This document shows, piece by piece, positions 10,675 to 54,810 of a DNA stretch of 56,938 nt. The translations under genes were made by a program, and so were the position numbers. The DNA comes from a virus. Lineage: Duplodnaviria; Caudoviricetes. The stretch lies in the IMG/VR virus record IMGVR_UViG_3300011114_000231, positions 1 through 56,938 of that record. One strand, given 5' to 3'. The notes under the pieces are model-generated. The model searched no databases. It was not told where the DNA came from and was given only the letters and a program-made list of their open reading frames with translations. Positions within the stretch are counted from its first letter, which is position 1. The number at the start of each line of letters is the position of its first letter.

Positions 10675-11177
10675 ACGTAGAGAAACTTATTGAGATGTGG
10701 AGAGCAGGTGCTAGCGGCGCTGTTATTGCGGCAAGCCTTGGCGTAACTAGAAGCGCAGTGCTTGGTAAAGTATATAGGCTACGGGAGCAGGGCATACTTG
10801 CTTATAGAAATGCTGAGAAGTCCAAGGTCAAGGTTAAAGAGATCAAAGAACCCAAGGAAGATACCACAAATGTGGTTAGACTGGAACGTAAAGTCCCCCA
10901 TACAACACAGGGAGGGAGCATGTTACGCATACGCCCAGAAGAACCAGAGCAAAAGCCAGTGGTTCCACCACCAATTCCCCAGTATGACCCAGACAAACCA
11001 TACCTAAACATACTGCAACTTAACTTTAATAAGTGTCGGTATATTATGACGGATGATACGTCGGTCAACGCATTTTATTGTGGCGAAACGGTACACCGTA
11101 GGTCATACTGCAAGGCTCACGCAGATATATGTTTAGTGCCAGCACCGAAAAAAGTTAGGGACACAAATGCAGCTTAG
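10671..11177 (+). CDS. gcrA: GcrA-like cell-cycle transcriptional regulator
   Basis: N-terminal LW..G.S...IA..LGVTRSAVLGKVYRL HTH; C-terminal LxxLxxxxCRY...FYCG...YCxxH. Confidence 0.88.
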   Translation: MNVEKLIEMWRAGASGAVIAASLGVTRSAVLGKVYRLREQGILAYRNAEKSKVKVKEIKEPKEDTTNVVRLERKVPHTTQGGSMLRIRPEEPEQKPVVPPPIPQYDPDKPYLNILQLNFNKCRYIMTDDTSVNAFYCGETVHRRSYCKAHADICLVPAPKKVRDTNAA

Positions 11178-11852: not shown

Positions 11853-12197
11853 ATGGCTACACCAGAGGCTAAGGTCAAAGCCAAGATTGATAAGATGTTA
11901 TCCCAGTTCAAAGGTCTGTGGTTCTATAGTCCACAGTCAGGTGTTTATGGGGTAGCGGGGATACCTGATCGTATTGCCTGTGTGGACGGGCATTTCGTAG
12001 GGATAGAAGCCAAAGCAGACAGAACAAAGAAGCCTACCGCCTTGCAACGGCAGTGTATGGCTAAGATAGAAGCGGCAGGGGGCAAGTGCTTCGTCGTGTA
12101 TGATGACGAGACACTAGAGATAGCCAGAGAATACATTTCGGGAGTGCTAAATGTTAGTTATAGAACAAGCCAAGGCTCTAGCCCTAAAGTTGAATAG
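11853..12197 (+). CDS. VRR-NUC domain nuclease (putative resolvase)
   Basis: PE..VK, GIPD, IEAK, PTALQ motifs. Confidence 0.88.
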   Translation: MATPEAKVKAKIDKMLSQFKGLWFYSPQSGVYGVAGIPDRIACVDGHFVGIEAKADRTKKPTALQRQCMAKIEAAGGKCFVVYDDETLEIAREYISGVLNVSYRTSQGSSPKVE

Positions 12198-13713
12198 CCC
12201 TGCACGGGTTCTGGATACTATCCGTGACTCCAAGATGGTCACGCTTCGCGGACAACAAGTTGTTGTAACACCCCATGACATTGATAGTGTGATTGCGCTT
12301 AACGATCTCGGTATCAGTGCGCCTTCTCCTATCCTGCATTACTATGACTGGCCCAGTCAGTTCAAACCATACGACCATCAGCGCAAGACAGCCGCCTTTC
12401 TAACAACCCACAAGAAGTGTCTGGTTCTTAATGAGATCGGCACTGGCAAGACGCAGAGTGCGTTATGGGCGGCTGACTATCTGATGAGTGAGGGCATCGT
12501 TAACAAAGTGCTTATCATCTCTCCGCTCTCTACACTGGAGCGGGTGTGGGGTGACGCTATTTTCAAGGGGTTCTACGAGCGCAGAGCCATTGTCCTGCGT
12601 GGTACGGCTGAGCGTAGGAAGCGGCTGATCCAGAAGGATGCTGACTTCTATATCGTAAACCATGATGGGTTCTCTATCATTGCTACTGAAGCTATCAATA
12701 TGTTTGATCTTGTTATCGTTGATGAGGCGGCTGTGCTTCGCAATGGGCAGACGCAAAGGTTCAAACAGTTCTACAAATGGATGGAGAAGAATCCACAAGC
12801 TAGGCTTTGGTTGATGACAGGTACACCCACTCCCAATGCACCAACAGATGCGTGGGCGTTGGCTAAGCTAGTTGAAAGTCCGTATATCACTGAGCGTTGG
12901 ACTGCGTTCAGAGACCAGACCATGTACAAATACAAGATGCACACGTGGATTGCGCGTCAGGATAGTGTTGACATAGTGCAACACGTTCTCCAGCCAGCTA
13001 TCAGATATACGAGAGATGATTGTTTCGACCTACCTGATACCGTTGTGCAGACACGTAGCGTTGATCTTACACCAGAGCAAGTCAAACACTTCAACGCCAT
13101 GATGAAACATCTTGTGGTGGAGATGAAGAAGTCAGGTGATGAGTCAACCATCAGTGCGGTTAATGAAGCAGTCAAACTCCAGAAGCTGGTGCAGATTGCA
13201 TGTGGTGTGGCATACGACGACAATGGAAACGATGTGGAGGTTGACTGTTCCCCTCGTGTTAATGCTGTCAAAGAGATCATAGACCTCTGTGACGAGAAGA
13301 TTATTATCTTTGTGCCTCTGACAGGAACTCTACATATGTTGGAGCGTGAGTTATCGAAGCACTGGACAGTCGGTGTGGTCAATGGCGCGGTCTCATCTAC
13401 CAAGCGAGATGTGATTTTTGATAACTTCCAGAACCACAAAGACCCGCGTATTCTCATCGCTCATCCAGCTACGATGGCGCATGGGTTAACGCTGACATCT
13501 GCCAGCACAATCATATGGTACGGCCCGATAAACAGTAACGAGCAATACACACAGGCCAATGGTCGCATTGAGCGTATTGGTAAGCGTCACATATCGAACG
13601 TGATCCATATAGAGTCTACAACAGTCGAGCATAAAATGTATGAGCGGCTGTCTAACAAACAGAAACTACAGGGACTTCTATTAGATTTGATAAAGGAGCA
13701 AACATATGACTGA
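12151..13713 (+). CDS. SNF2-family helicase
   Basis: PYDHQ, GTGKT, DEAA, TGTP, HGLTL, QANGRIERIG. Confidence 0.92.
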   Translation: MLVIEQAKALALKLNSPARVLDTIRDSKMVTLRGQQVVVTPHDIDSVIALNDLGISAPSPILHYYDWPSQFKPYDHQRKTAAFLTTHKKCLVLNEIGTGKTQSALWAADYLMSEGIVNKVLIISPLSTLERVWGDAIFKGFYERRAIVLRGTAERRKRLIQKDADFYIVNHDGFSIIATEAINMFDLVIVDEAAVLRNGQTQRFKQFYKWMEKNPQARLWLMTGTPTPNAPTDAWALAKLVESPYITERWTAFRDQTMYKYKMHTWIARQDSVDIVQHVLQPAIRYTRDDCFDLPDTVVQTRSVDLTPEQVKHFNAMMKHLVVEMKKSGDESTISAVNEAVKLQKLVQIACGVAYDDNGNDVEVDCSPRVNAVKEIIDLCDEKIIIFVPLTGTLHMLERELSKHWTVGVVNGAVSSTKRDVIFDNFQNHKDPRILIAHPATMAHGLTLTSASTIIWYGPINSNEQYTQANGRIERIGKRHISNVIHIESTTVEHKMYERLSNKQKLQGLLLDLIKEQTYD

Positions 13714-15741: not shown

Positions 15742-18591
15742 ATGAATACGCTGGATTTTCTTCGGCGAGTTTTGCCGACTGAAGGCTTATATGTTTCTGT
15801 AGTTGTTAATGCTAAATATACCAGACAGGGGTTCTACGATTCCATAGATAAGTTGTCAGATGCCGTCACCGCATTGAGTGATAGTGGCAACAATGTTTAT
15901 TATGCTGTGGCTTCTTTTGCTGATCGTGCTGGTGGTCGCAAGCAACCAAACGTGCATTTGCTGAAGGCTCTTTACCTCGACGTTGACTGTGGTGAGGACA
16001 AACCGTTCTTCGATTGGAAGGACGGCCTTAAAGCTATTGGTAAGTTTATCGCAGACACTGGTCTGCCCAAGCCTATGATTGTTCGATCAGGCAATGGACT
16101 TCATGTGTACTGGGTATTAGACCGTGAGTACTCCAGAGCCGAGTGGCAACCAGTAGCCGAGATGCTCAAAGCCTCCACATCTGCACATAACTTTGAGGTT
16201 GATCCAGCAGTCCCTGCCGACAGCGCACGTGTTCTTAGAGCAGTGGGGACTATCAATCCAAAGGGCGGCAACACGGTAACGAAAATCATAGACGCTAGTC
16301 CAGTTGATTTAGAAACACTTAAAAACATATTGTCAAAGTACGTACCGACCACACGGGTATTCACAACCAAGCCTAAGACAAGTTCCTTGCTGGATAATCT
16401 AGCAGTTAAGTCTGACTACCCAGAGGCAGACCCCTCCATCATTGTAAACAAGTGCGCTCAGTTAACGCATATAACCACCAACCAGAAAGATATTTCTGAG
16501 CCACTGTGGTACGCCGCCCTGGGAGTAGCCGCGTATTGTATCAACCCAGAACAAACTGCCATAGAGTGGAGTCAGTATCATCCTAGCTTCGACCCGAACG
16601 AAACCATTCGGAAGATGGAGCAAGCCAAGGCCAACACCACTGGACCGTCTCTATGCTCAAGGTTTGAGAGTGAGAACCCCAATGGATGTAAGGGTTGTGT
16701 ATTCAAAGATAGAGTGAGTACCCCCGCCAGACTGAGCGTTAACTACGCCGCTATTGACCCAGATGACAATGCCCCAGACGACATAGTTAAAACTATAGCA
16801 GTGCCTTGGCCCTTCAAGCGCACGGCAAGCGGCATGAAGATGACGATCAATGACGTTGATACAGACGTTTGCAAGTTCGATATATACCCAGTTGGCTATG
16901 GTAGGGATGAAACCCTTGGATATGAGACTGTGCGTTATAGGTGGAACCGTCCTCATGTGGGATGGCAACCTCTTATCTTTAGGCAAGCCTACCTCAACGA
17001 CACAAGCAGAGAGTTTGCTGGGTGCATAGCTGACCAAGGTATTGTGCTACAGAACAGGAAGCAGACGGAGAATTTTCAGTACATGCTCAGATCATATATG
17101 GACGAACTGCGGCAGTTACGTTCTATGAGTAACCTGTACGCATCAATGGGGTGGAAGGAAGGCAACACTCAATTCCTCCTTGGTGACAACTTGTTTAAGC
17201 AAGACGCAACTGGTTCCGCAGTGCAAGAGCAAGCGTCATTCGCGGCTAATACCCACCGCACTGTCGAGCCTATGTTCATAAGTGCTGGCAGCGTAGATGG
17301 GTGGGCTAAGTTCACATCTCTTATCGAAAAAGCAAACATGCCTATTCACGGGTTCGCTTTGCTCGTGTCCATGTCATCGCCGCTGTACAAATTTACTGGG
17401 CTAAAAGGCCTGACAATAAATCTATATGGACCAACAGGTGCTGGTAAAACTCTAGCGCAGTACTGGCAACAGTCCGTGTGGGGTGATCCAGAGAAGCTAC
17501 ACTACACAGCCAAGTTCACACAGAACGCTTTGTATGCACGTATGGGGCTGTACAATAACCTGCCAGTCACCATCGACGAAACTACTATGATGCAGTCTAA
17601 AGATGTCGGGGACTTTCTGTACTCCGTATCACAGGGCAAAGAGAAGGCCAGACTTAACCGCAACGCTGAAGAGCGCGACACAAAAACGTGGAGTACTGTG
17701 GTAACAACGTCATCAAATAGGTCGATGAGTTCCATGCTCGTAGCCTCTGGACTTGAGACCGATGCACAGATGGCGCGTCTGCTTGAGATCACAGTGGAGA
17801 AGCATCCACTTCTGGTGCGTAGCACAGAAGCTGGTCAAAAGATGTATGAGTTCATTACAACTAACTACGGTACGGTTGGCCCAGCTATCATAAAACATCT
17901 TATGGAGCTAGGCGAAGATAACATACGGCTTTCTATCCAGAACCATAAGGCCATGTTCTATGCCCAATATAATTGTGAGTTTACTGGTAGTGAGCGCTAC
18001 TGGGAACAGGCTATTCTCCTAGCAGATTATATTGGTAAGATCGCCAAGAGCCTTGATCTAATCCAGTTCAACCATTCTAAGTGCATAGAGCATGTCCTCA
18101 AACAGATCGGAGCGATGCGTAAGGCTGTGAAGGAGAATAGCGTGGATGCGTTTGATGTGATCACGGAATACATCAACGAACATTCTGGCAATACAATCAC
18201 GGTCATGCACACTGGAACCAATAAGCCTCAACCTAACTCAAACCGTATACCTAGAGGTAGCGTATGCATTAGGTTCGACCTTTACCGTCCAACACAGATT
18301 GCCCCATTTGATAGAGGCACTGTGCTGTTTGACCGTAAGCATTTCAGAATGTGGCTAGCCACAAAGGGCGGAGACTATCGCTCTCTTGTCCGCGAGATCA
18401 CAATGGCTGGGGTGCAAGCTACGCCCCAATCAGAGAAAGCGTTCCTCGGTAAAGACACTGACATCAAGCTTGGACAGCAATACGTGTTGGGAGTTAGCCT
18501 CAACCATCCTCGCCTTGCTGGTGTGTTGAATGACGCAGACGATGCCGCCATGTCTGCGCCACTTAATGTTATACAGGGTGGTAAGAATTAA
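15742..18591 (+). CDS. Primase-helicase (RepB/AEP-like primase, PriCT-like region, DUF927 helicase)
   Basis: LDVD and SGNGLHVYW primase motifs, RVLR, Cys cluster, Walker A GPTGAGKT, Walker B TIDE. Confidence 0.9.
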   Translation: MNTLDFLRRVLPTEGLYVSVVVNAKYTRQGFYDSIDKLSDAVTALSDSGNNVYYAVASFADRAGGRKQPNVHLLKALYLDVDCGEDKPFFDWKDGLKAIGKFIADTGLPKPMIVRSGNGLHVYWVLDREYSRAEWQPVAEMLKASTSAHNFEVDPAVPADSARVLRAVGTINPKGGNTVTKIIDASPVDLETLKNILSKYVPTTRVFTTKPKTSSLLDNLAVKSDYPEADPSIIVNKCAQLTHITTNQKDISEPLWYAALGVAAYCINPEQTAIEWSQYHPSFDPNETIRKMEQAKANTTGPSLCSRFESENPNGCKGCVFKDRVSTPARLSVNYAAIDPDDNAPDDIVKTIAVPWPFKRTASGMKMTINDVDTDVCKFDIYPVGYGRDETLGYETVRYRWNRPHVGWQPLIFRQAYLNDTSREFAGCIADQGIVLQNRKQTENFQYMLRSYMDELRQLRSMSNLYASMGWKEGNTQFLLGDNLFKQDATGSAVQEQASFAANTHRTVEPMFISAGSVDGWAKFTSLIEKANMPIHGFALLVSMSSPLYKFTGLKGLTINLYGPTGAGKTLAQYWQQSVWGDPEKLHYTAKFTQNALYARMGLYNNLPVTIDETTMMQSKDVGDFLYSVSQGKEKARLNRNAEERDTKTWSTVVTTSSNRSMSSMLVASGLETDAQMARLLEITVEKHPLLVRSTEAGQKMYEFITTNYGTVGPAIIKHLMELGEDNIRLSIQNHKAMFYAQYNCEFTGSERYWEQAILLADYIGKIAKSLDLIQFNHSKCIEHVLKQIGAMRKAVKENSVDAFDVITEYINEHSGNTITVMHTGTNKPQPNSNRIPRGSVCIRFDLYRPTQIAPFDRGTVLFDRKHFRMWLATKGGDYRSLVREITMAGVQATPQSEKAFLGKDTDIKLGQQYVLGVSLNHPRLAGVLNDADDAAMSAPLNVIQGGKN

Positions 18592-21500
18592 TCTGTTAGG
18601 GATTCAAACAACCTACGAATATCTTCTTGCGACCCCTTTGGTGCGGCTTTGATTGTTCTCTCACCTGCTGGACGAGAAGCTTCCTTCTTCATACGCTGGT
18701 AGCTTCTTTCAAAGTTACGCATCTCATATACAGTGCCACGTGTTTGCTCGTTCCAGTTAGCTACAGCCTCTCTGACGGCGGCGGCACGATCTGTGTCGCC
18801 CGTCATCTCAGCTTTGAGCAGTGCTATGCGCCATGCCGAAGTAACTTCTTTCTGGTAGCCAGTCATGCGGTTGGAAATCTTGATGACTTCGTACTGCTCT
18901 GCGGCCTTAGATGGGTAGAACCCCAAGAGCCTAGCGATGGACACACCTACAGACATATCTGGACTTACCACATAGCCACGGCGGTCAACGATTGCACCGT
19001 TCTGGTTATAGGCTACAGCATCACCGACGGTTCTAAGGAACGTGACAGGTGAGGAACGTGCTATATCGACAAGGCTTTTCTTTTCAGAGAACGGAAGCAT
19101 AACTATATCTCTGGCAGTAGCCGCCGCATCCATAGCAAATGAACCCATTGGACCAGTCAGGTCTTTTCCTTCGATGGCTGTCTTTGCACCTGCCAAGAAT
19201 ATGCCTGTTCCTGGTACCATATTACCCATAGAGAACTTAGCACCAACATCTCCTGACAAACCAAACTGATGCACCACGCCATTGATAACGAGCGAAGCAA
19301 GTCCAGGATGAATGTCATCTAATACCTTAGTGAACTCTGCCCTAACACTACCAGACTTCATGCCAAGTTGTTGCATCAGAGTATCAGCCAAGTCCTCCAT
19401 ATCCTCGGCAAATGGAAGCCCCTTGGCCCCAGCCATAACATACATCATCCCAAGCACCATGATCTTGCCAGTCGTATCCAAGTTCTTGATCAGTTGGATG
19501 GTAGTGACTGGGAACACCTTATACATATACAGCAGTGACGGAAGACCCTGCCTCCATGCTGGTGGGCGGTTGAGAATAGAATAGTCACCGATAGTTTCGT
19601 CAAGAGATTTACCAGCGAACAGACGGGCAGCGGCATCTGCTTCCACTGCGGTACGACCAGCGGCAATGCTACGTGCATAGTCAAGGCGATACGCAGCCAG
19701 ACCTGCTGAGCGACGAGATGCCTGCTCAGTCAAGTTAAATGGAGCCATCATTATGTTGACAGCTTTCTGCGCCCAAGGTGCCTGGATATGATCAAGTGCA
19801 ACAGACAGCAAGTTGTTGATAGATGCTGGCTGCATACGACCGCCGTTGATTTCGTCGGCTAGATACTTAGCCTCATTGGCTGTGATTTGCTTTTGAAGTT
19901 CAGCATTGTTTTCGTAGTTATCATAGTATGCGGCAGTGTTGACTTCCGCGTTGGTTAGACCACTAAGCCCGACCTGCCCGAAGGCAGTATGGTATTCAGA
20001 CATAGCCTTACCGTAGCCGAAACCACCGCCGAAATTATTCTTTTCATTATACGTAGCCATCCACGGACCCCAGTTCGTATAGATACTGGTCAAGTTCATG
20101 ATGCCTTGGACGGGAGTCATACCTAATTGCGCGGTTGTAGCAAACGCTTTGAACATGGAAATCTTTTTACCAGACTCCAAGTCAGAAGAATCTACGTACT
20201 TATTGTTCTCAAGCATGGCCAAGGTACGACCAGCCATATTGTAAAACTCGTTGGCACGTGAGTACCCCCGCTGTCCCGCAGGCGGGAGTGTTTCTTCGCT
20301 ACCATTCCAGCCTTTCATATCTGGGTATGTCTGCTTATACATATACAACGCGCTGTTGAGTTCACGTTGCATAAGATTTTTACGTTCTGGATCAGTCTGA
20401 GCATCAACTTCTTTTTTCAGAGCGATGATATATTTCTCATTGCCGTTCCACAGCTCCATGCTCTTTGGATTGCTACGATCCAAGAGTTCACGCATAGCGG
20501 GGCGACTCTCCGTCTTGGAGATGATAGACGCACGACCACGAATATGTTGTGCTACTCCAACCAGTGCATCTTTTGGGTTATATCCAGGGGTCTCGGAGTA
20601 AGCCAACTTGCTACGCGCACTATTACTGGTCTCAGTAAGAGTTGTAATGATGTCAGCCATTACGTCAGGGGTCGGGTTAATACCGAACAGGCGCAACCCA
20701 TGCAGGAACGTATCCAAGTTGAGGCTTGGGTCTGTGGATATTTGTTCAATCGCACTACCGTAGCTGGCTACCAAACGCACGTCCTTAGTCTCAACCTGAC
20801 CTTCATCGCCTTCGACTAAAGCACTATAGGTTGAATCTTTGAACTTGTTATTAAACGCATCGGATGCGTTTTTTGCGTCAGATGGGTTTTCAAATAAAGA
20901 GAACACCAACATATCCTGATGCTCTTGAGATAGGCGCACAGGCTTATCACCAATATATGCGGTGATACGCATCTGATGATTGCCTTCACGGTAGATAGGT
21001 GTGTAGCCCTCTACAATTTTTTCTTTAGTCTCGCGCTCTGCTTTGTCGAAGTTGGCTTCAGATGTAATGATCCTTTTGATTTCATTCTGGAGGATGTATG
21101 CTTTATTAGGGCTGCGATCCAGTTCCTCTCTGGTTATACGGCGCGACTTGAAGTCATCCAGCATACCCAAGAAATCATCAGCTTGCTTCTGGTTATTGAA
21201 GAACTGATTTAGACTTGCATTTTTATCACTCTCACGTGCAATCATTGCTTCATTGAGGAGTGCAGCAAACTCATTACTTTTGCTTACAGAGTTATTATTG
21301 AGAGATAACCTACCACGCGCATCTTTAGTCATGCCATCAGTATATATTTGTTTATATATACGAGTAGCTTCGGCGAGGAACCTAGAGTCAGCCGCAGTGA
21401 AGTCGCCTGTTTTCATCAGGCGTTTAATCGACTCTCTGGATATGTCTTGATCAGATAGTACACTTGTGTACTTAGCCATGAGAAGATCAACTTCAATGTC

Positions 21501-24500
21501 GTTCATAGCCTTAGCTAATTCAACATAGGCGTTGTATTGCGCTTCAGTCAGGTTAGGGATGCCCTTAAAAGTACGATCTTCTTTGGCATTAGAGTTTAGA
21601 AAAGCAGGTACATTCTTAACTGTTATACCATCCTTGGCTTCGTCATATGTCATAATGCCGTATTTACGCAGACGATCAACCTCTGCCTTATTTATGGTTG
21701 GGTTACCATCTTTGTCGGTAGTAATAAGTTTGGCAGTACCAAAATCTATTTCAGTAGTACGTGTTTTCCAGATGGCTAAGTCACGACCAGCATACAGCAA
21801 CTTAGATGCAGACTCTCTAAGTTCTTGTTTCCCGCCAAAGATAGCACCAATCCTAGCGTTATAGGTATTAAGAACCTGAGCATCACGCTGAGACACTGTT
21901 TTGGTCAGGTTAACAAATGCGTTAAGTCCAGCGTTCTCGTTCGATGTGAACGTAGCCAACGATAGATATTTATTAGAAAAGTTATTCCACTTCTCACGGG
22001 TATTAATATCCTGCCCAGTGATCATCTTCAACGCAGCATCTAGATTAAGGTCTTGGGTTTTGTCATGAATCCAGTGGCTGAAGTCGCTCATATCCACACG
22101 AAGCGGACCCTGTGCGAAACGCCCAGTACCTGTGTTACCAGAATCAATCTGGTTGATACGACGGCCTATAGCTTCCGCATCAAACGCTGAGCTTGTCTGC
22201 CCAGTGCGCACATAGCGACGAGCCTGATCAAGCACGTAGCGCATAGCCTCATCACCAAAGCGGATGCCGACGTTGTTCAAGAAACCCTTGATGGAGTTCC
22301 AGATACGGCGAAGCAGGCTGGTGTCTAGCAGGCCAGCATAGTCAGACAGGTATTCTTCAACAGCTTCTGCTGTAGACATACCTTCGTTAGCCATCATGGC
22401 AGCATCGACTTCTGCCTTGATGTATGGGTTCTCGTTATACAGAGACTCCATGATGGAATCGAAATTGCTCTGCGGCATAATGCCACGCAAGCCAAAGTGT
22501 CCAAGCGTTTCATGTGCTACAACAAATTGCAGGTGCTGCTGATGTGCAATGCGATCAGAGAATATAACAACATGCTGAGTGCCGTTGTGGGTAAACGAGT
22601 ATCCTGCTGCATTGGCTTTATCAAAGTCACCTTGAGGACGAGCAGCTACCGCCTGTGCATAGAGCGTAGGATTAGATGCTTTCATATCCGCTTGGTTGCG
22701 GAACACATGTGTGTTTGGTTTAACAGCAAACTTGGCGATGATGTTATTAACTAACATACGCACACGCCCAACACTCATAGGTGTCGTAGGCGCACCGCTC
22801 TGCGTATCAACTGAACCGCCAGTTGTGTTCCAATCAGCCAGAGAATACTTGCCGGTACCAGGGGCTGTATTATTTACAGCCTGTGCATTTGCTGTAGCTT
22901 GTGCTCTAGCCATACCATCTTGAGCGGCTTTGATGTCAGCCTCTAGTTTGGTAGCGCGTTTGTTGTACACATCAGGGTCTAAAGAACCTGCCATATTCTG
23001 CAAGTTGTTCAGATTATTTTGTGCAAGTGCTAGGGCTTTTTCAAACTTACTGATAACCGCTGCCGTCTCACCAGTGATGGTGCTTGGGCCAAATGACGTT
23101 TCAATAGGAACCTCTATGGTTGGAGGTGCCGTAGTAACAGCTACTTCTGGTTGCGTTACCCGTCTATTGTGCAGTTCAGCAAGACGCTTAGCCCCTTCGG
23201 TGAGGCTAGTTGTTCTGCCAGTAGTTGTTGCCACATTTGGATTCGCAATAGAACCACCAGCCCCAGTTAAATTACCTTCTGAGGATGTTTGGTTTTGCGT
23301 TGGGCTTTGGTTTTGTGCGGTTGAGGGGGCGGTTGCGACCACCCCTTCCGGCTTTGGGGGCGTTACTTCCCCTTGCGAGGCCGCGCCTTGCTGAGTGCGA
23401 TTGCCACCGCCTGTTTGACCGCCGCCTGCTTGTTCTTGGGGTGCGACGTTCCGATTTTGTGACTGCCCTTCCAGTCGTCCACTAGCGTTTTGACGTTTGC
23501 GGAGATTGTTTTTTGGCTCTTGCCCGCCTTGAGTGGCATTGGGTGTCCCTTTCTGTAATAGTCTAGCTAGTGGAGTTCCTTTTTTAGTAAACATTTCCAT
23601 CTGGCCAGATGGAACACTCTGAGTGGTCATAGGTACTTCTGCCAAGTTACCCCGCCCACGCGCTGCCATATCCTGCTGGCTAGCAAGTTGACTTTGTGTT
23701 TGCGCTGGCAAAACTCCAGGTACGGCAGGGCGCACCTTGCTGCGCAGATATTCAGCACGAGCAGACCGCTGCTTCCCTTCTGTTTTCCCTGCCCGCCCTG
23801 GAACAAACAACGGAAGTTGTTCTGGCATAACAGCAGGTGCTGGACCAGCTTGAGGAATACCTGCAGCAGCAAGCGTACCCTGTGGAAGAGTATCAGCCTG
23901 TGCCTGTGCATCTTGACCTAGCTGCGCCTCAACTTGTGCAAGGCTCTTATCAAGAACTTTCTGCAAGCGATTGCGTTCACGTTGGGTAGGAGCAGAATCC
24001 CTATTAGCCTTATCCTGCTGCGCACGAAGAAGTGCCGCACCCAGTGCAGTATTTGCTGCAGGCATCGGCATCGGCATCGGCATCGGTGCAGGAGCTGGTG
24101 CAGCAGGAGCTACTTGAGGTGCAGGAGGAGCAAGCGGAAGTTCTAACTGCTGGCCACCAAGAGGTAGGTTTAGTTGCTGAGGCTCGTAATATTTAGTTGG
24201 AGCAGTCTGCTGTGGACCACCTGGGAATAACTCACCCTGCCTAGGAGCACCTTCAAACATGGGTAAGCCAGTGAAGTCTGGCGGCATCGAAGGTGGAAGT
24301 GGGCGTGGAGGTGCCGCAGGACGTTGTGGAAGCCCCGTATCAAACGGAAGCTCCATCTGCCCCGTTGGTGCAGGTGGATAGATAGGGGACAGTTCTGCTG
24401 GAGCACGGCGTGGTGTAGTTCCACCTGTAATGCCAAGCAATTCGGGGAATAATTCACCCTGCGTCCCAACAGATTTCGGCAGGAATGGTGCTGGGGCATC

Positions 24501-25874
24501 AGGAGGTGCAAGTGCTGGGGCAGTAGTATCAGCCTTTGCCTTATCCCCAGCGTTCTTATTTAGATCAACTGGGGTGAACATCCCAGTGACACCACCGGTA
24601 CCAAAGCCAAGAACAGCGCCAACGCCAGCAGCCATAGCAATATCATAGCCGTACTTATCAATGATGTACGGAGCCAGCATCTTCATGTCGTTGACATTCA
24701 GCTTGCTACGGAACTCAGGATCAAATGTAGCCTTCTGAATAAGTTCCGCTGTGCCTTCGGCAAAGGCTTCGCTAAATGCGCCCATGCTAGCCTGTCTACC
24801 AATAGCTGCTTTGCGGGTAGCATAACTGGCAACGCCCTCAAGTTCTTTACGAAATACCATAGACATGCCTTTAGCCAGACCGTGATCTGCCCAAGACTGA
24901 ATGGCTGTGCTGCTGGCAGCGGCGGCTAAGATTTGCGCACGAACTGCTGGGTCTTCTACGTTGTATGCTGGTGTTCCGTCTGCGTTCTTAGCATTAGCTG
25001 CTGCTTCATACAGACCTTTGACTTCACCAGGGAATGTAGTTGCCACTACGCCAGTGAGCGAGCCAATGTTACGCGCACGATTAAGTGCTGCTGCAGCTGA
25101 AGCAACTTCAGCTGTTGTTGCGCCAGCGGCGGCTGTTACTCCTGCAAGTCCAGCACGGGTAGCGATGTTACCAGCAAGGGCAGCGCCCCCCACACCCCCA
25201 ATAACGGAAGTTGCTAAGGATGGGATTGCTTGAACAACAGCATCAAAGAAATTTTGTGTGCCAGACTGGCGGCTAGCAATAAGCGCAGACCTAGCCTGTT
25301 CGTTCTGAGATGGTTCGATATATTTATCAGAGAACCCAGCAATGGCCTTACCCGTATCAGGTGCGATACCCGTGGTTTCCAATACACGACCAACACCACC
25401 AACCAATGCTCCAGCGGTATTCTGCACCCCCTGCATAAAGTTGCCACCAAACCCGCGGTTAGATGCAAGTTGGTTTAGATAATCATTATATCCTTCTGGT
25501 GTCAGTCTAGTTCCTGTGAATCCCTGCGGCGGAGGAGTAGGATCACCTAGACGTTGAGCAGCAGTGAACGCAGCGTTGACATCACCAGGATCAAATACAG
25601 AACCACCAGCAAACATCTTGTTAGATGCTTGATCAAACAGGATTTGACCACCAGACTGCTGCGGTGTTTTCTCTATAGCCTGCCTACCAATTTGTGCGCC
25701 AGCAGCACTAAAAGCATCTGCCATAGACCGTTGAGCAGCTTGTAACTGAACAGCAGCATCAGCAGAGGAAGGAGCTAAATTGCCTAACCCATTGGCTTGA
25801 GTGACGCTACCTGGGTCACGAGCTGCGCCATAAGCAAGTTCAATATCATTGCTTGGATAAAGTAAGCCAGCCAT
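18588..25874 (-). CDS. Giant internal virion/ejection protein (large polyvalent-like) with HExxH metallopeptidase-like domain
   Basis: 2428 aa, last gene of the structural arm; VVAHETLGHFG and AVEEYL; hydrophobic segments near both ends. Confidence 0.75.
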   Translation of the reverse strand: MAGLLYPSNDIELAYGAARDPGSVTQANGLGNLAPSSADAAVQLQAAQRSMADAFSAAGAQIGRQAIEKTPQQSGGQILFDQASNKMFAGGSVFDPGDVNAAFTAAQRLGDPTPPPQGFTGTRLTPEGYNDYLNQLASNRGFGGNFMQGVQNTAGALVGGVGRVLETTGIAPDTGKAIAGFSDKYIEPSQNEQARSALIASRQSGTQNFFDAVVQAIPSLATSVIGGVGGAALAGNIATRAGLAGVTAAAGATTAEVASAAAALNRARNIGSLTGVVATTFPGEVKGLYEAAANAKNADGTPAYNVEDPAVRAQILAAAASSTAIQSWADHGLAKGMSMVFRKELEGVASYATRKAAIGRQASMGAFSEAFAEGTAELIQKATFDPEFRSKLNVNDMKMLAPYIIDKYGYDIAMAAGVGAVLGFGTGGVTGMFTPVDLNKNAGDKAKADTTAPALAPPDAPAPFLPKSVGTQGELFPELLGITGGTTPRRAPAELSPIYPPAPTGQMELPFDTGLPQRPAAPPRPLPPSMPPDFTGLPMFEGAPRQGELFPGGPQQTAPTKYYEPQQLNLPLGGQQLELPLAPPAPQVAPAAPAPAPMPMPMPMPAANTALGAALLRAQQDKANRDSAPTQRERNRLQKVLDKSLAQVEAQLGQDAQAQADTLPQGTLAAAGIPQAGPAPAVMPEQLPLFVPGRAGKTEGKQRSARAEYLRSKVRPAVPGVLPAQTQSQLASQQDMAARGRGNLAEVPMTTQSVPSGQMEMFTKKGTPLARLLQKGTPNATQGGQEPKNNLRKRQNASGRLEGQSQNRNVAPQEQAGGGQTGGGNRTQQGAASQGEVTPPKPEGVVATAPSTAQNQSPTQNQTSSEGNLTGAGGSIANPNVATTTGRTTSLTEGAKRLAELHNRRVTQPEVAVTTAPPTIEVPIETSFGPSTITGETAAVISKFEKALALAQNNLNNLQNMAGSLDPDVYNKRATKLEADIKAAQDGMARAQATANAQAVNNTAPGTGKYSLADWNTTGGSVDTQSGAPTTPMSVGRVRMLVNNIIAKFAVKPNTHVFRNQADMKASNPTLYAQAVAARPQGDFDKANAAGYSFTHNGTQHVVIFSDRIAHQQHLQFVVAHETLGHFGLRGIMPQSNFDSIMESLYNENPYIKAEVDAAMMANEGMSTAEAVEEYLSDYAGLLDTSLLRRIWNSIKGFLNNVGIRFGDEAMRYVLDQARRYVRTGQTSSAFDAEAIGRRINQIDSGNTGTGRFAQGPLRVDMSDFSHWIHDKTQDLNLDAALKMITGQDINTREKWNNFSNKYLSLATFTSNENAGLNAFVNLTKTVSQRDAQVLNTYNARIGAIFGGKQELRESASKLLYAGRDLAIWKTRTTEIDFGTAKLITTDKDGNPTINKAEVDRLRKYGIMTYDEAKDGITVKNVPAFLNSNAKEDRTFKGIPNLTEAQYNAYVELAKAMNDIEVDLLMAKYTSVLSDQDISRESIKRLMKTGDFTAADSRFLAEATRIYKQIYTDGMTKDARGRLSLNNNSVSKSNEFAALLNEAMIARESDKNASLNQFFNNQKQADDFLGMLDDFKSRRITREELDRSPNKAYILQNEIKRIITSEANFDKAERETKEKIVEGYTPIYREGNHQMRITAYIGDKPVRLSQEHQDMLVFSLFENPSDAKNASDAFNNKFKDSTYSALVEGDEGQVETKDVRLVASYGSAIEQISTDPSLNLDTFLHGLRLFGINPTPDVMADIITTLTETSNSARSKLAYSETPGYNPKDALVGVAQHIRGRASIISKTESRPAMRELLDRSNPKSMELWNGNEKYIIALKKEVDAQTDPERKNLMQRELNSALYMYKQTYPDMKGWNGSEETLPPAGQRGYSRANEFYNMAGRTLAMLENNKYVDSSDLESGKKISMFKAFATTAQLGMTPVQGIMNLTSIYTNWGPWMATYNEKNNFGGGFGYGKAMSEYHTAFGQVGLSGLTNAEVNTAAYYDNYENNAELQKQITANEAKYLADEINGGRMQPASINNLLSVALDHIQAPWAQKAVNIMMAPFNLTEQASRRSAGLAAYRLDYARSIAAGRTAVEADAAARLFAGKSLDETIGDYSILNRPPAWRQGLPSLLYMYKVFPVTTIQLIKNLDTTGKIMVLGMMYVMAGAKGLPFAEDMEDLADTLMQQLGMKSGSVRAEFTKVLDDIHPGLASLVINGVVHQFGLSGDVGAKFSMGNMVPGTGIFLAGAKTAIEGKDLTGPMGSFAMDAAATARDIVMLPFSEKKSLVDIARSSPVTFLRTVGDAVAYNQNGAIVDRRGYVVSPDMSVGVSIARLLGFYPSKAAEQYEVIKISNRMTGYQKEVTSAWRIALLKAEMTGDTDRAAAVREAVANWNEQTRGTVYEMRNFERSYQRMKKEASRPAGERTIKAAPKGSQEDIRRLFESLTD

Positions 25875-47257: not shown

Positions 47258-47626
47258 TTACGAAGCCATAACTACCCAGTTAGTGCCGTCGCTAACAAGT
47301 TCAACCCAAGCCCCAGCAGAAGCGGCAAGGATTGCCGTACCTGCGGTAGCGGAGCCAATGGGAACTACGTTGCTAGACGCAGACACAACAGTAAACGCAG
47401 CAATAGTCTTGATAGTAAGAGCACGACCAGGAGCCGAAGAAGCCGCTGGAAGCGTCACAGTGATAGAAGCCGTACCATTGCACACAATGAAACGGTCAGT
47501 AGATGCTACTGTGAACGATGCAGTCTTTGTAACAGGTGCTGCACCGGTAACAGTCAGGGTATTGAGGGTAGCTTTTCCGCTGTTAATGATAACATTATCC
47601 AACGCAACGCCAGTATAAAGACCCAT
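47258..47626 (-). CDS. Putative head decoration/fibre protein
   Basis: ITVTLPAA...GR..TIK...LVSDGTNW; AGGAGG RBS. Confidence 0.7.
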   Translation of the reverse strand: MGLYTGVALDNVIINSGKATLNTLTVTGAAPVTKTASFTVASTDRFIVCNGTASITVTLPAASSAPGRALTIKTIAAFTVVSASSNVVPIGSATAGTAILAASAGAWVELVSDGTNWVVMAS

Positions 47627-47637
47627 TTCTGCCTCCT

Positions 47638-47665
47638 AAAAAGGAGGTGGGGCCAAAGCCCCACC
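47638..47665 (-). terminator. Terminator-like hairpin after the capsid decoration gene
   Basis: GGTGGGGC-tttg-GCCCCACC then tccTTTTT. Confidence 0.5.
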
Positions 47666-47668
47666 GTT

Positions 47669-50127: not shown

Positions 50128-50349
50128 TCAGCGAGGTTTTGCTGTTAGTTCTGGTGAATCTTGTAATAACTTATATAGCTCTGTCAAGACCTGACAACGA
50201 CCTTGTGCCACTTGAACACTAGAATTACCTGCGTTTGGTAGCTGTCTAAGTTCGTGTTGGTACCAATTCTGCACCCAATCAGTGAATACAGGATTGTACT
50301 TAGCTACATTTGCTATGGCTGCAACTTGCTCTGGGGTAGGCCGAATCAT
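50128..50349 (-). CDS. Small conserved protein after the portal (Bbp19-like)
   Basis: AQGRCQVL motif and position. Confidence 0.6.
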   Translation of the reverse strand: MIRPTPEQVAAIANVAKYNPVFTDWVQNWYQHELRQLPNAGNSSVQVAQGRCQVLTELYKLLQDSPELTAKPR

Positions 50350-52427
50350 GCTGCCCCTGTTTGCTGGTTGCTCACCGTATTCATACCACCTGCAGGTCCA
50401 CCTGACATACTCACCTTAGCTGGTGCAGCCTGCTGTCCTTGAGGGCCAGCCTGTGGCTGTTGTGGTTGCTGTTGCTGCTGAGCTTGTGCCTGCAGCTGCT
50501 TTAACTGTGTGGTATAGTTTAACTTATCACGGCTGGGTACGATCTGGTCTACAGGCATCTGCAGACCTTTAGCCACTTCACGGAGGATAGCAGCGCGACC
50601 ATCAATACCAATGATGCTCATATCTACTTCGTTGCCGGTAGCATTAAGGAACTCGACACGGCGAACGTTGACAGTCTCACGAACAGCAAGGTTAGTAGCG
50701 CCACGTGGAATAATCTGCAGATCACCCTTGATCTCGTCGTCTGGATCGTACCGCATGTTGTACACAAACTGACGTTCAACAATCGGTTTAGTGATGTCCA
50801 TGTCAATATGCATGACAACCTGGCGGATACCCTTACCAGCTGACCCCATGAGCATGGAAAGCCCAGACGCAGTACGACCTGCACCCTGCACGTTGGTATC
50901 ACCATAGATGTAAGCAGGGATACCGGAGTGGTCATCAGCCATGCGGCTGAACTTTTCATACACAGCCATCAGAGTGGTGGAGTTATCAGTAGGCTGATTG
51001 AACCGCACAGCTGGCGCAGAAGAGCCAAGCGGGTCATTCAAGACCTGCCAAATCTTCCACGGATGCATTTGTGTGATGTCTTCGTTAGGAGGTATGCGTT
51101 CTAGATTGACTTCGACCTGGGGACCAGACGCAATCCCCATGTTATTAACCAATGCACGAGCAGAAGCATTACAAATACTCTGTAAATCTTCGATAATTTC
51201 GGGGATAGACCGACCCCAAAATGCGCCTGGCATCTTAATAAACGAGGTTTTTGCGTAGGGTTTTTCGCCCAATGGGTCATAGTTTAGGATAGATTTGATG
51301 ATATAATTGCCTACCATCCACACATTTGCGTCGTATTCGCGGTCCTCATCAGGGATTTCCTCTTCAGTCATACCCCATTCGCGCAACATTCTGCCGCTGA
51401 CTTTGCCCCAGAACTCAAGCGCATCATACAAATCAGTCGGACGCATCTCGGTATAGAACTTACGCTCTTCCTGTTCGCGCTCGATATAGGTAGTATCAGC
51501 TACCCACGACTGAGATGGACCTTCCTCAAGAACTTTGCGAACAGCCTGATCATCGTAACCGGGAGCACCGATAAGATCAGCCAGATCAGTACGGGTCAAC
51601 TTATGGTGCTCAAACAAATACCCATCATTGATGCGGGTAATGCCAGGCTCAGGATACATATTAAACGGACTAACACGCTCAAACTCAGGAGCAAGCCGTT
51701 CTGCTGGTTCTACCAGCATTTTGCCGTCAGGACCACGATTATAGATTAGATGCCGCTGGCGGCGTACCACTGGCCCTTTAACAAACGCACAAGGGAACGT
51801 CACAAGATCAGTGATAAACTCATTGAACGCATCGACCCAGCCACCTTGGGCAAACTGATCATCAATGCGAATCTTCATACGCTCGGCACGGTTAGTAGCC
51901 GCCTGCAAGAGTTTGAACCTGAACTCCTGCTGTACAAGTTCTTTCATCTCAAGCATCTGAGCTTTAGACGGTGCCTGCCCAGTTGACTGGATCATCTGCA
52001 TCACCTGCTCGGCAAATGCGGACTTCACTTGATCCATTTGGTCTGGGGATAAATCAGGGATTGGCGTTGGCTGAATATCCCACGGAGGGGTACCAGCATC
52101 CAAGAGAATGTCACGCAGCCAGCTCTCAGCGGCTCGGCACTTGATCTCGGTCAACATCATATAGACATCTGACCCGCCTTGATCACGGATAGCTTTCAGT
52201 TTATCAGGATCATACTCCCCGTTACGCTGACGCATTGCGCGTAGCATAATCTGTTCGATTGGCTGTTTGGCAATACGTGCTGCATCCCAGCACTCACGCA
52301 AATAAGCGCCTAGCCCAAGGAGAACATCACTCTGCTGCCTGGCTTGAAGTTCAGCATCCAGCCTTTGCTTCTCAGCACGATCAAGTTGTTCGTTGCTTAC
52401 AACACGCAAAACGCTGAGACCAGCCAT
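50346..52427 (-). CDS. Portal protein
   Basis: 693 aa; RTASGLSMLM, EFWG, Gln-rich tail; between terminase and scaffold. Confidence 0.9.
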   Translation of the reverse strand: MAGLSVLRVVSNEQLDRAEKQRLDAELQARQQSDVLLGLGAYLRECWDAARIAKQPIEQIMLRAMRQRNGEYDPDKLKAIRDQGGSDVYMMLTEIKCRAAESWLRDILLDAGTPPWDIQPTPIPDLSPDQMDQVKSAFAEQVMQMIQSTGQAPSKAQMLEMKELVQQEFRFKLLQAATNRAERMKIRIDDQFAQGGWVDAFNEFITDLVTFPCAFVKGPVVRRQRHLIYNRGPDGKMLVEPAERLAPEFERVSPFNMYPEPGITRINDGYLFEHHKLTRTDLADLIGAPGYDDQAVRKVLEEGPSQSWVADTTYIEREQEERKFYTEMRPTDLYDALEFWGKVSGRMLREWGMTEEEIPDEDREYDANVWMVGNYIIKSILNYDPLGEKPYAKTSFIKMPGAFWGRSIPEIIEDLQSICNASARALVNNMGIASGPQVEVNLERIPPNEDITQMHPWKIWQVLNDPLGSSAPAVRFNQPTDNSTTLMAVYEKFSRMADDHSGIPAYIYGDTNVQGAGRTASGLSMLMGSAGKGIRQVVMHIDMDITKPIVERQFVYNMRYDPDDEIKGDLQIIPRGATNLAVRETVNVRRVEFLNATGNEVDMSIIGIDGRAAILREVAKGLQMPVDQIVPSRDKLNYTTQLKQLQAQAQQQQQPQQPQAGPQGQQAAPAKVSMSGGPAGGMNTVSNQQTGAA

Positions 52428-52429
52428 GC

Positions 52430-52780
52430 TTATCCCCTCAGAGTCAGGATTACGTTAATGCTATTACCTGTACCGGCTGTCACGACTGGCTTGAGATATG
52501 CCGCGCTAGACTGAAACTCAAAGATAGCTGCGGCTGTAGCACTGAGTGCCGTACCAGCAGCAGACCGGTCCTTCATAGCAAAGAACGTCGTATTGTCATT
52601 AGATGAGTTAAGCGCAACGGTAGCGCCACCAAAAGTACCTGAAATCTGTACTGCAGCGTTACGAGCCTGCCCATCGCGCACAGCAAATGCAACAAGAGTA
52701 TCACCAGTAACAATGCCAGACCAGATTACGTAAGGCACACCGTCTGCGGTCACTTTAACCGAGGGGGTAACTGTCGCCAT
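52430..52780 (-). CDS. Hypothetical beta-rich structural protein
   Basis: VQISGTFGGATV....SND pattern; AGGAGG RBS. Confidence 0.75.
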   Translation of the reverse strand: MATVTPSVKVTADGVPYVIWSGIVTGDTLVAFAVRDGQARNAAVQISGTFGGATVALNSSNDNTTFFAMKDRSAAGTALSATAAAIFEFQSSAAYLKPVVTAGTGNSINVILTLRG

Positions 52781-52808
52781 GGAAATCCTCCTATTGCGCG
52801 ATTAGCGA

Positions 52809-52837
52809 ACAATAGACCAAATTACATAATATCGCAA
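52809..52837 (-). promoter_or_regulatory. Promoter for the portal/head operon
   Basis: TTGCGA-N17-TATTGT on the minus strand. Confidence 0.55.
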
Positions 52838-52842
52838 CACCA

Positions 52843-52919
52843 TAAAAAGGTTCCCTGTGCGGATGGGCTTAGCACAGGGAACCAAGTCTGGGAGTGGAGC
52901 AGGGCGGGGAGAACGCCCT
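52843..52919 (-). ncRNA. Putative small regulatory RNA, MmgR/suhB-like
   Basis: 5' hairpin AGGGCG-UUCUCCC-CGCCCU, single-stranded CUCCACUCCCAGACUU, 12-bp terminator stem plus U5; own promoter upstream. Confidence 0.65.
52844..52883 (-). terminator. Intrinsic terminator
   Basis: GGTTCCCTGTGC / GCACAGGGAACC 12-bp stem followed by TTTTT. Confidence 0.85.
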
Positions 52920-52924
52920 GAGTC

Positions 52925-52953
52925 AATATGGCACAACATAACACGCTGTGCAA
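52925..52953 (-). promoter_or_regulatory. Promoter for the putative sRNA
   Basis: TTGCAC (52953-52948), N17 ending TGc, CATATT (52930-52925). Confidence 0.6.
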
Positions 52954-52954
52954 G

Positions 52955-53392
52955 TTAGAATTTCCTAGAGTATCCAATGCTCAACGAGTGACTAGCCTTA
53001 CCCTCTTCTTTGTTTCGCCCATATGTGAGCGACACATTAGAGTCATTACCCAAGTCACGGCTAACAGATACTTCGTTAACGCCGCCGCGAGTGATGTTCT
53101 TATTACCCGATGGTGTCTGCACTTTGACCTTAGAGTAATCTACACCCACGCCAATATTATAGTCCCCAACAGGAATGTTCACGTTGCCACCACCGGCTAC
53201 GCCTGAAATCCTGCTAGTATTTCCAGGGCCAGAAGTTCCAGATGGAATAGACCCACCGCTAACAGAAACAGACTGCCCGCCAGAATCTTCTTCGGAGGAA
53301 TTATCACTCTCGACAACCCCGCCCTTCTTATAGGACTTGAGCTTGCCGCTGCTGCAAACCCGCGACAGTGACTTGTTAGAATAGGTTTTCAT
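52955..53392 (-). CDS. Hypothetical protein with YKKGG motif and amphipathic beta-strand C-terminus
   Basis: GGAGG RBS before MKTYS; ends SLSIGYSRKF. Confidence 0.7.
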   Translation of the reverse strand: MKTYSNKSLSRVCSSGKLKSYKKGGVVESDNSSEEDSGGQSVSVSGGSIPSGTSGPGNTSRISGVAGGGNVNIPVGDYNIGVGVDYSKVKVQTPSGNKNITRGGVNEVSVSRDLGNDSNVSLTYGRNKEEGKASHSLSIGYSRKF

Positions 53393-53421
53393 GCCAACCT
53401 CCGTGTGATATGCTACGCATA

Positions 53422-54810
53422 TCATGTCCAACCAAACGAAGCAATCGGCTTAATATCCCTACGTGTCACGACATACCCACCATCACTCACGGTAGAAATA
53501 TGCAACATAAGATACTGAAGTGCCTCGGCTACGTGACTGTGTTTGTTCTTATCAATGTCACTGTCGCCCTTGGGCTTGAACCTGTACCCACCCATCATGG
53601 CAGCTTTAAGCTGAGTGCAACTAGGGTCCACAAGGAACGCAGGGTCACCGTCAACCTGCCGCATCAGGTAGTCGTCAACGGAGCTTATCCGCGCAGACAC
53701 GTTGTTGGTCTTAGCCGGTATTACTTTGAACCCTTCAGCTTTAATAATATCGACTGCGCTCCGTTCGTCGGTCTGCGCCCTCTGAACCCCAGCCGGGTCA
53801 GTTACTATAAGGACTGGTGCGCCGCTGAACTTCTCGAAGAGCAACGGTTTCAAAATCGTCCTTACGAAACGCTGTATCCCCATGTCAAAGCTTACAGCCT
53901 CCGCTAGCACTAGTGCGCGACCACGCGCATCCTGCTGACCGATGACCGCAGCTGGCGTTAGCCCCAAGTCCATCCCGATCACGATGGGACGAACCCCTGT
54001 TGATATATAACGCAACTTCTCCTTAGCCATGTGGTAGTCCGGCCTAAAGTATTTATACACAGGCATACCGGCAGAACTCAGTCCATACTCACCGTCGATG
54101 TACACGCGGATATACTCTTCCGACCGACCCTGTGTATCGTAGTATCCCTCTGGCAAGTTCTCGATATTCTCAGCTATATGCGTCCGACCGGACGGCTGCT
54201 TGAAAACATCCCACCCATTATTAGCAGGAGACACCCCATCTTTGGGATCAAGCCCCTCCATCTGGTAATACCACCACGTATCCATAGTCGGCGGGTTCGT
54301 ATCACCCCACATTCCATGCCAAGTCGGACCTCCGTCCTTCTTAGACGGGAAACGTCCAATACGCTTTGACATAGCGTCCACAATATCAGGGTGAATGTCT
54401 CTACACTCGTTGAACCAAGCGAACGTCAACTCCAACGAGTTCAAATTTGCCACATCATCCGCGTCATCAAGCGCACGGAACATAATCTCGCACTCAACAT
54501 CCCCTACTTTGAAGAAATATGTCTTGGTTGTGCGCATATAGTCGCCACATTCCCCCGGTGGGAACCAATCCAGGAACGTTTTGATGGTCGTATCCTGCAG
54601 CTGACGCGCAGTTTCGCGCACCACAGCCGCTCTGGTCTTGCGAATCCCGTTTTTGTTGGGCTCCTGCATAGTTGCACGTCGGATAACCTCAAAACTGCAC
54701 GTAACTGACTTGCCAGACCCCACTGGACCCATCAAAACACGCATCTTTTTGTCAGATTTCATGAACTTCTTGCCTGTAGTAGGCGGTGTATAGTCAATTT
54801 CCAGTGCCAT
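53422..54810 (-). CDS. terL: Terminase large subunit
   Basis: Walker A GPVGSGKS, WFNE Walker B, DTNP coupling motif, nuclease GMDLG, DPAG, HSHVAEALQY. Confidence 0.95.
   Translation of the reverse strand: MALEIDYTPPTTGKKFMKSDKKMRVLMGPVGSGKSVTCSFEVIRRATMQEPNKNGIRKTRAAVVRETARQLQDTTIKTFLDWFPPGECGDYMRTTKTYFFKVGDVECEIMFRALDDADDVANLNSLELTFAWFNECRDIHPDIVDAMSKRIGRFPSKKDGGPTWHGMWGDTNPPTMDTWWYYQMEGLDPKDGVSPANNGWDVFKQPSGRTHIAENIENLPEGYYDTQGRSEEYIRVYIDGEYGLSSAGMPVYKYFRPDYHMAKEKLRYISTGVRPIVIGMDLGLTPAAVIGQQDARGRALVLAEAVSFDMGIQRFVRTILKPLLFEKFSGAPVLIVTDPAGVQRAQTDERSAVDIIKAEGFKVIPAKTNNVSARISSVDDYLMRQVDGDPAFLVDPSCTQLKAAMMGGYRFKPKGDSDIDKNKHSHVAEALQYLMLHISTVSDGGYVVTRRDIKPIASFGWT

Follow-up and report, generated by a model that had tools for sequence, protein, structure and literature searches.

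Is the noncoding stretch that precedes the portal operon of this uncultured phage a small RNA gene in its own right, as a preliminary description of the locus held, or is it the tail of an upstream messenger, and in either case what would its exposed pyrimidine-rich runs do? Studies of regulatory RNAs in lytic phages appear to be few. We analysed the stretch within a 56,938-base IMG/VR record, hereafter the window, which is a complete virus with direct terminal repeats, and compared it with related phage sequences and with known RNA families.

Genomic setting of the element

Genes run on the plus strand from 1 to 18.6 kb of the record and on the minus strand from 18.6 to 55.4 kb. The plus-strand block encodes a family-A DNA polymerase, an SNF2 helicase (12151-13713), a DUF927 protein and a GcrA-like regulator (10611-11177), and the packaging and structural genes sit in the minus-strand block, which opens with a single ORF of 2,428 aa (18588-25874, minus strand). 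The GcrA-like cell-cycle regulator gene (plus strand; PF07750, 65.4 bits) lies within the replication module; GcrA is typical of Alphaproteobacteria, and this gene hints at an alphaproteobacterial host. The portal is at most 35% identical to cultured-phage portals, the nearest being those of Rhizobium phage RHph_TM3_14A and of the HMO-2011, CRP and HTVC podophages of Alphaproteobacteria; the uncultured lineage that carries the element is one of HMO-2011-like podophages. The DNA runs in which the stretch occurs bear the labels viral, riverine, lake and freshwater metagenome, and none of the 20 runs listed for it is of RNA.

The element stands between orf158 and orf116, and its neighbours follow each other on the minus strand in this order:

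53422-54810, minus strand: large terminase subunit gene (terL); in most relatives the element lies directly 3' of the terL stop
52955-53392, minus strand: orf158, whose TAA stop (52957-52955) adjoins the element; hypervariable in relatives
52430-52792, minus strand: Shine-Dalgarno (SD) sequence AGGAGG (52792-52787) and orf116 (52780-52430), the gene 3' of the element
50346-52427, minus strand: portal gene, next after orf116

The ORF listing of orf158 spans 52955-53431 from a TTG, but translation more likely begins at the ATG at 53392, which GGAGG precedes. Neither orf158 nor orf116 matched a Pfam or PHROG family, no tRNA or tmRNA was found, and a DNA similarity search of 52300-53500 against 50,697 phage records returned no match.

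A predicted three-hairpin fold ending in a terminator

The element occupies 52954-52843 on the minus strand, immediately 3' of the orf158 TAA. Read in its own direction, TTGCAC (52953-52948), 17 nt and CATATT (52930-52925) are followed by AGGGCG-UUCUCCC-CGCCCU (52919-52901), GCUCCACUCCCAGACUU (52900-52884), GGUUCCCUGUGC-UAAGCCCAUCC-GCACAGGGAACC (52883-52849) and a run of five U residues (U5, 52848-52844), which makes 77 nt counted from A52919. The letters quoted in the preliminary description and its layout of about 77 nt are all present on this strand, and the kind of RNA that it proposed is supported in so far as the element resembles the anti-SD small RNAs of proteobacteria, combining a loop and a single strand that are both rich in C/U with a terminator. 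The folded parts are as follows:

52931-52951, minus strand: hp0, a 9-bp hairpin, GCACAGCGU-GUU-AUGUUGUGC, found by folding; begins 4 nt past the stop codon
52900-52920, minus strand: hp1, a 7-bp stem (CAGGGCG/CGCCCUG) with the anti-SD-like loop UUCUCCC at 52913-52907
52884-52899, minus strand: CU-rich linker CUCCACUCCCAGACUU, predicted to be unpaired
52844-52883, minus strand: hp2, an intrinsic terminator with a 12-bp stem, loop UAAGCCCAUCC and U5 (-22.1 kcal/mol)

The predicted energy is -37.6 kcal/mol for the 86-nt core (z -5.8) and -46.0 kcal/mol (z -7.05) for the three-hairpin fold of all 112 nt between the stop codon and the end of the U run, none of 200 shuffles being as good in either case. 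The version that starts at A52919 (77 nt) has two hairpins; the third comes only with hp0, and hence with 112 nt. Unpaired probabilities are 0.88-1.00 in the hp1 loop UUCUCCC, in the linker CUCCACUCCCA and in the loop of the terminator.

The last hairpin has the hallmarks of an intrinsic (Rho-independent) terminator, being stable and G+C-rich, running directly into a U run and lying past a stop codon on the gene strand; an automated terminator scan with a loop limit of 3-8 nt missed it, the hp2 loop being 11 nt. Nine hairpin-plus-U-run sites at -11 kcal/mol or below were found on both strands of the window, and hp2 is the most stable. With its G+C-rich 12-bp stem and U5 behind a stop codon and a promoter-like site further on, the element resembles an ordinary operon-boundary terminator. 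It could be nothing else: a plain terminator with stabilising 3'-UTR hairpins, which ends low-level terminase transcripts before a separate promoter for the portal and head genes and whose C/U richness has no pairing role. We consider this a serious explanation, if on the whole an unlikely one. That the element starts 4 nt past a stop codon and ends in the strongest hairpin-plus-U-run of the window speaks for it; an ordinary terminator, however, lacks the two extra conserved upstream hairpins and the invariant exposed C/U runs, and the other hairpin-plus-U-run sites do not share the CU-motif feature, the element alone having more than two CU motifs in the upstream 60 nt (five, against zero to two at the others).

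Conservation in close relatives

An IMG/VR portal search gave 80 loci at 61-96% identity. Six close relatives (L002-L005, L009 and L088) carry the element at 89-97% identity, and the 31 nt of hp1 and linker do not differ among the seven members of the window clade, leaving aside G52888, an insertion that is confined to this genome's population and missing from all six relatives. The noncoding columns beside hp1 and linker differ at 9 of 41 positions upstream and 9 of 68 downstream (counted by eye), and third codon positions of terL, orf116 and the portal gene are 65-86% identical among the close relatives. A terminator needs no conserved loop or linker, yet here hp1 and the linker are invariant while the neighbouring noncoding columns vary, which argues against a terminator alone.

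The fold is kept as well. Across the window clade 98.2% of cells are paired, with two compensatory pairs, a result reached by 25 of 500 shuffles; the changes on both sides comprise one pair in hp0 (C-G to U-A) and one at the top of the hp2 stem. Six of the nine hp0 pairs vary within the clade and 94.4% of their cells remain paired. Part of the sequence identity reflects recent shared ancestry: a lake-water contig is identical over 52700-52960, coding third positions included. This contig has 30 differences, and all those listed fall at 52961-53069, inside the 3' end of orf158, which places a mosaic boundary at the orf158 stop codon (52957-52961). orf158 is itself fast-evolving and mosaic, with 73-81% protein identity among the close relatives against 94-98% for terL, orf116 and portal. 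A gene with opening residues similar by eye (K-S-Y-x-K-G-G) is placed behind the RNA element, not ahead of it, in AT-rich relatives.

Other roles for the stretch were considered and rejected. It had been described as free of ORFs, and we find no conserved one: a small protein is discounted by 1-nt indels among close relatives that break the 45-aa and 51-aa minus-strand frames. An antiterminator was suggested by the hp0 arm GCACAG, which equals the top of the hp2 3' arm, but by eye the match is gone in L002-L004 and L088. Finally, a phi29-like packaging RNA would have a purine-rich loop for loop-loop pairing; the element has none, nor any unpaired GA motif, and the large terminase of this phage is of the normal type.

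Recurrence in the wider phage family

A covariance model built from the window clade and searched in the relatives returned 11 weak full-length matches outside the clade, all on the gene strand and all inside the terL-portal interval. Of 42 distinct related IMG/VR sequences, 41 have this layout behind terL. Beyond the terL stop of distant relatives come a hairpin, a second hairpin whose loop is C/U-rich (for example UUUUCCUC, ACCUCCCAC or CUUCUCCUCCCUGCU), a spacer also rich in C/U, and a terminator, after which the next gene has a strong SD. A strong terminator lies within 230 nt in 34 of the 42; six clade-II sequences have the hairpins with a weaker tail (two folded, the rest by reading), and in L072 the element sits after an inserted small ORF. 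It is absent from the terL-portal interval of L068/G005 (a 55,985-base record, 100% complete by CheckV estimate), in which three small ORFs are packed between terL and portal with no hairpin-terminator module, and this is a natural element-less comparison genome.

For the nine sequences of clade I, RNAalifold predicts three hairpins with 92.1% of cells paired and 11 compensatory pairs, which none of 500 shuffles reached; slid controls were 33-48% paired. The exposed motifs are one-sided. Among the 34 strong-terminator sequences, CUCC, CCUC and UCCC occur 139 times against 31 for their complements, and unpaired 72 times against 0, with at least one unpaired copy in 28 of the 34, counts that overstate the number of independent events, many of these sequences being near-duplicates or close relatives. 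The matched relatives span 32-73% G+C, and an excess of 72 exposed motifs over 0 complements across such genomes is a further point against a plain terminator.

In clade I the first hairpin, within the first 45 nt after the terL stop (L051, L054-L057, L061, L065 and L069), conserves its loop, UUUACUCAUUUG, while its stem covaries, with changes of UA to CG and CG to GC. The matching hp0 loop of clade II contains UUCAUAUUU, and the window has CAUAUU just past hp0; the shared motif may be a -10 box or a recognition loop. A conserved loop on a covarying stem is typical of a recognition hairpin, and the hairpins and C/U runs could together form a surface for a protein or for the polymerase, for instance as a decoy for Hfq, a CcaF1-like protein or cold-shock proteins, or as a put-like antitermination element. 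Passages of PMC4615179 and PMC8034643 describe binding of cuckoo RNAs, a group of bacterial anti-SD RNAs, by Hfq and CcaF1. We nevertheless think such a role quite improbable here: no candidate protein emerges, orf158 and orf116 having no Pfam or PHROG match, and the loop sequences differ between clades except for their SD-complementary core.

None of the three cultured relatives checked carries the element. HMO-2011 and CRP-2 leave no room for it, with terL-portal gaps of 10 nt and 3 nt, and in RHph_TM3_14A terL is on the other strand. An 18-mer scan of viral contigs returned the window clade only, plus two chance matches in coding regions, and a word search of open-access full text found no anti-SD RNA described after the terminase gene of HMO-2011-type phages.

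Stand-alone gene or end of an upstream messenger

There are two promoter-like sites, one overlapping hp0 and one past the terminator:

52925-52954, minus strand: TTGCAC-N17-CATATT, or CTTGCA-N17-CCATAT (9 of 12 to CTTGAC-N17-CTATAT)
52809-52837, minus strand: TTGCGA-N17-TATTGT, past the terminator and ahead of orf116 (8 of 12, below the scan threshold)

The first of these had been taken for the promoter of a stand-alone gene, but it is weak. TTGCAC-N17-CATATT matches TTGACA/TATAAT at 7 of 12 positions and was not called by a promoter scan; the best reading, TGCACA-N16-CATATT, matches at 8 of 12, a level reached by 10% of random window positions. Read against the rhizobial sigma70 consensus CTTGAC-N17-CTATAT (PMC2873474), the site agrees at 9 of 12, a level attained by 2% of random positions, and the minus strand holds 80 such sites. 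A site in the top 5% occurs at the promoter position appropriate to a start at hp1 in 4 of 34 relatives for TTGACA/TATAAT and in 6 of 34 for the rhizobial consensus. Moreover, hp0 (52951-52931), which the preliminary description had missed, overlaps the proposed -35 hexamer and spacer. Since hp0 covaries, the stretch upstream of the claimed start site is itself RNA, as a terminator at the end of a longer transcript would have it. That the element is a stand-alone gene is therefore doubtful, its claimed promoter overlapping a covarying hairpin and promoter-like sites at this place not being conserved in relatives.

By the criteria of the promoter scan, a site lies before hp1 in 3 of 34 relatives and after the terminator in 11 of 34, a distribution that favours the terminator reading and makes the separate head-operon promoter of the preliminary description plausible, although the window's own site fails the scan. 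The element begins 4 nt past the orf158 stop here and about 10-15 nt past the terL stop in relatives. Because hp0 covaries and begins 4 nt past the stop codon, the simplest reading of the sequence is that the module would be transcribed as the end of the upstream mRNA; in the window clade a weak promoter belonging to the module itself may contribute. There is a precedent in CcsR: passages of PMC8034643 describe how RNase E releases these anti-SD hairpin RNAs from a 3' UTR.

Pairing with ribosome-binding sites

Complementarity to ribosome-binding sites (RBSs) of the phage's own early genes, put forward in the preliminary description, is largely present. AGUGGAG, the complement of CUCCACU, was found before the ATGs at 719, 2139, 7199 and 14115, and GGGAGUG, the complement of CACUCCC, before the SNF2 helicase gene at 12151; GGGAGAA, the complement of UUCUCCC, was found before 7432 and 7683, but the RBS at 15731 is GGGAGAG, with one mismatch. 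AGTGGAG occurs 15 times against 7.4 +/- 2.5 expected, and none of 100 shuffles reached 15.

With crude ORF-plus-SD gene calls, and as an early preference found post hoc, the linker pairs in the window at -11.2 kcal/mol with 29 early start regions against -8.7 kcal/mol with 39 late ones (p=0.0025), a difference that none of 300 shuffled linkers matched. A generic 16S-like anti-SD gives a smaller difference in the window (-7.6 against -6.9, p=0.038), and the hp1 loop alone shows no early preference there (p=0.13). In the relative G001 the preference of the loop (-1.99) is the same as that of the generic 16S-like anti-SD (-1.63), and G002 has no early preference (+0.87). The idea that a late RNA silences early translation thus finds post-hoc statistical support in the window and is unspecific in the two relatives; the pairing potential is SD-generic, with an early-gene bias in one of three genomes. 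A DUF3150 mRNA released by a ribozyme had been named among the targets, and Rfam at gathering score finds no ribozyme anywhere in the window.

Read-through transcripts might be controlled in cis, their C/U runs pairing with the strong SD of the next gene (52792-52787) and silencing that gene, which would be translated only from transcripts of the downstream promoter. The principle is like that of the c4 RNA of phage P1, which acts on icd/ant. A start codon and SD lie within 39-93 nt of the terminator in 29 of 34 sequences (none was found in the other five), the orf116 SD is among the strongest of the late genes, and L031/L032 have an 8-bp complementarity between CUCCCUAG of the element and CUAGGGAG of the next start region. 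Pairing energies show no co-evolution, the elements gaining nothing with their own downstream start regions over those of other relatives (-14.2 against -13.5 kcal/mol; mean rank 12.0 of 28). With a promoter-like site between element and SD, moreover, and with the Rfam C4 model matching neither the window element nor its relatives, we hold cis control to be improbable.

Comparison with known RNA families

At gathering score no Rfam family matches the window. The best full-length alignment of the window element is to SorY, at 15.1 bits against a cut-off of 111; it scores 10.7 bits against anti-hemB and has no match to tsRNA or ar14. The relatives' sub-threshold matches (nine loci, E<=5) fall to anti-SD sRNA families alone: L042 aligns end to end with tsRNA (RF02278) at 30.3 bits (E 0.038; cut-off 50), L035 and L053 match ar14 (RF02344) at 26.7 and 22.5 bits (cut-off 58.8), and the best score of a relative against anti-hemB (RF02837) is 25.7 bits (cut-off 49.5).

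Membership of the MmgR/suhB family, which the preliminary description had proposed, is not supported by the covariance-model check. RF00519 has no match at gathering score, none at E<=10 over 601 nt or 125 nt and none at E<=5 in the loci of nine relatives. There is a likeness, in that the element has 77 nt, an anti-SD motif in its first loop and a terminator, and MmgR is described in excerpts of PMC7143759 as an alpha-r8 RNA of 77 nt that forms three stem-loops, the first of which carries an anti-SD motif in its loop. This resemblance is real but generic to anti-SD sRNAs. The motif UUUCCUCCCU-AGACUUG, which had been given as a mark of the family, is absent from the window and unconserved in relatives, and its AGACUUG part depends on G52888, the residue that the six nearest relatives lack.

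Capture of a stand-alone MmgR/suhB homologue from an alphaproteobacterial host, redirecting carbon storage through phasin/PHB genes, is accordingly very improbable in our judgement, even with the length and first-loop motif that it shares with MmgR (as given in the excerpts of PMC7143759), the hint of such a host from the GcrA-like gene and a promoter-like site at 9 of 12 to the rhizobial consensus. Beyond the Rfam scores and the G that the nearest relatives lack, a scan of the genomes of 185,579 species with a single exact pattern (TTCTCCC-N7-CTCCACTCCCA), which excludes near-identical copies only, gave 36 scattered matches in unrelated phyla, none of them structured: their model scores are at most 19 bits, with no terminator and no hairpins. 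The element is also old in the phage lineage and fixed after terL, unlike a recent capture.

The closer likenesses are to other anti-SD RNAs. Cuckoo RNAs (CcsR/RSs0680 and NfeR1; ar14 in Alphaproteobacteria) share with the element adjacent hairpins, anti-SD-like C/U loops and compensatory stem changes with little sequence conservation beyond the motif. Each of their hairpin loops carries CCUCCUCCC, according to passages of PMC4615179, whereas this 9-mer is absent from the window element, which has UUCUCCC and UAAGCCCAUCC in its loops and CUCCACUCCC in its linker; a near-cuckoo motif, UCUCCUCCC, occurs in the relatives L035 and L071. The element further differs in being phage-borne, in standing after terL and not beside a DUF1127 gene, and in having one motif in a linker rather than in a loop. 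Like it, tsRNA and anti-hemB are RNAs of about 60-90 nt in which a hairpin loop of CUCCUCC type is directly followed by a terminator, and tsRNAs are expressed RNAs, toxic when cloned in E. coli according to PMC4603805; they differ in that the scores lie below the cut-offs and the host class is probably another. The element is best described as a putative new, phage-borne variant among anti-SD sRNAs, belonging to no cuckoo/alpha-r14, tsRNA or MmgR family.

Discussion

The element folds into a stable structure whose stems covary, is conserved above its background, recurs in synteny after terL and exposes CU motifs in one-sided excess. It is a real and conserved structure that goes beyond a plain terminator. 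The explanation that we tentatively favour, though short of an even chance, is that it is a conserved noncoding RNA module of about 77-112 nt at the 3' end of the terminase unit, acting as a cuckoo- or tsRNA-like anti-SD sRNA that lowers translation. In this proposed mechanism the 3'-terminal piece would be made as the end of the orf158/terL mRNA, possibly also from its own weak promoter, and would persist as a stable small RNA. Its exposed C/U runs would then pair with GGAG-type ribosome-binding sites and lower translation, in the manner of cuckoo/alpha-r14, tsRNA and MmgR-type anti-SD sRNAs. The preferred targets in this genome would be early and replication genes, and perhaps host mRNAs too. 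Among the points against this explanation, the complementarity is just of SD length and so is generic, a terminator is expected at this place anyway, and the close relative L068/G005 does without the element.

A broader version of this anti-SD reading, which we rate as rather unlikely, holds that the lineage has its own multi-site anti-SD sRNA family, derived from the 3' end of a late mRNA, that would brake early phage and host mRNAs alike. GGAG-type ribosome-binding sites would then be titrated late in infection in freshwater and marine podophages, from a fixed place after the terminase gene. If this were true, the broad brake would be for phages what cuckoo and toxic small RNAs are for bacteria.

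Should the element prove to be a working anti-SD RNA, phages would have evolved the device that bacteria use in their cuckoo and toxic small RNAs, and the module would offer a compact, conserved handle on late transcripts for damping early or host translation. If it is a terminator alone, the one-sided excess of exposed C/U motifs still wants an explanation.

Elsewhere in the late region, a second terminator-like hairpin lies at about 47626-47668 on the minus strand, between two late genes (GGUGGGGC...GCCCCACC, running into CCUCCUUUUUAGGAGG). The CCUCCU within CCUCCUUUUUAGGAGG can pair with the SD AGGAGG of the gene starting at 47626, and from its sequence this hairpin may be one that sequesters the SD.
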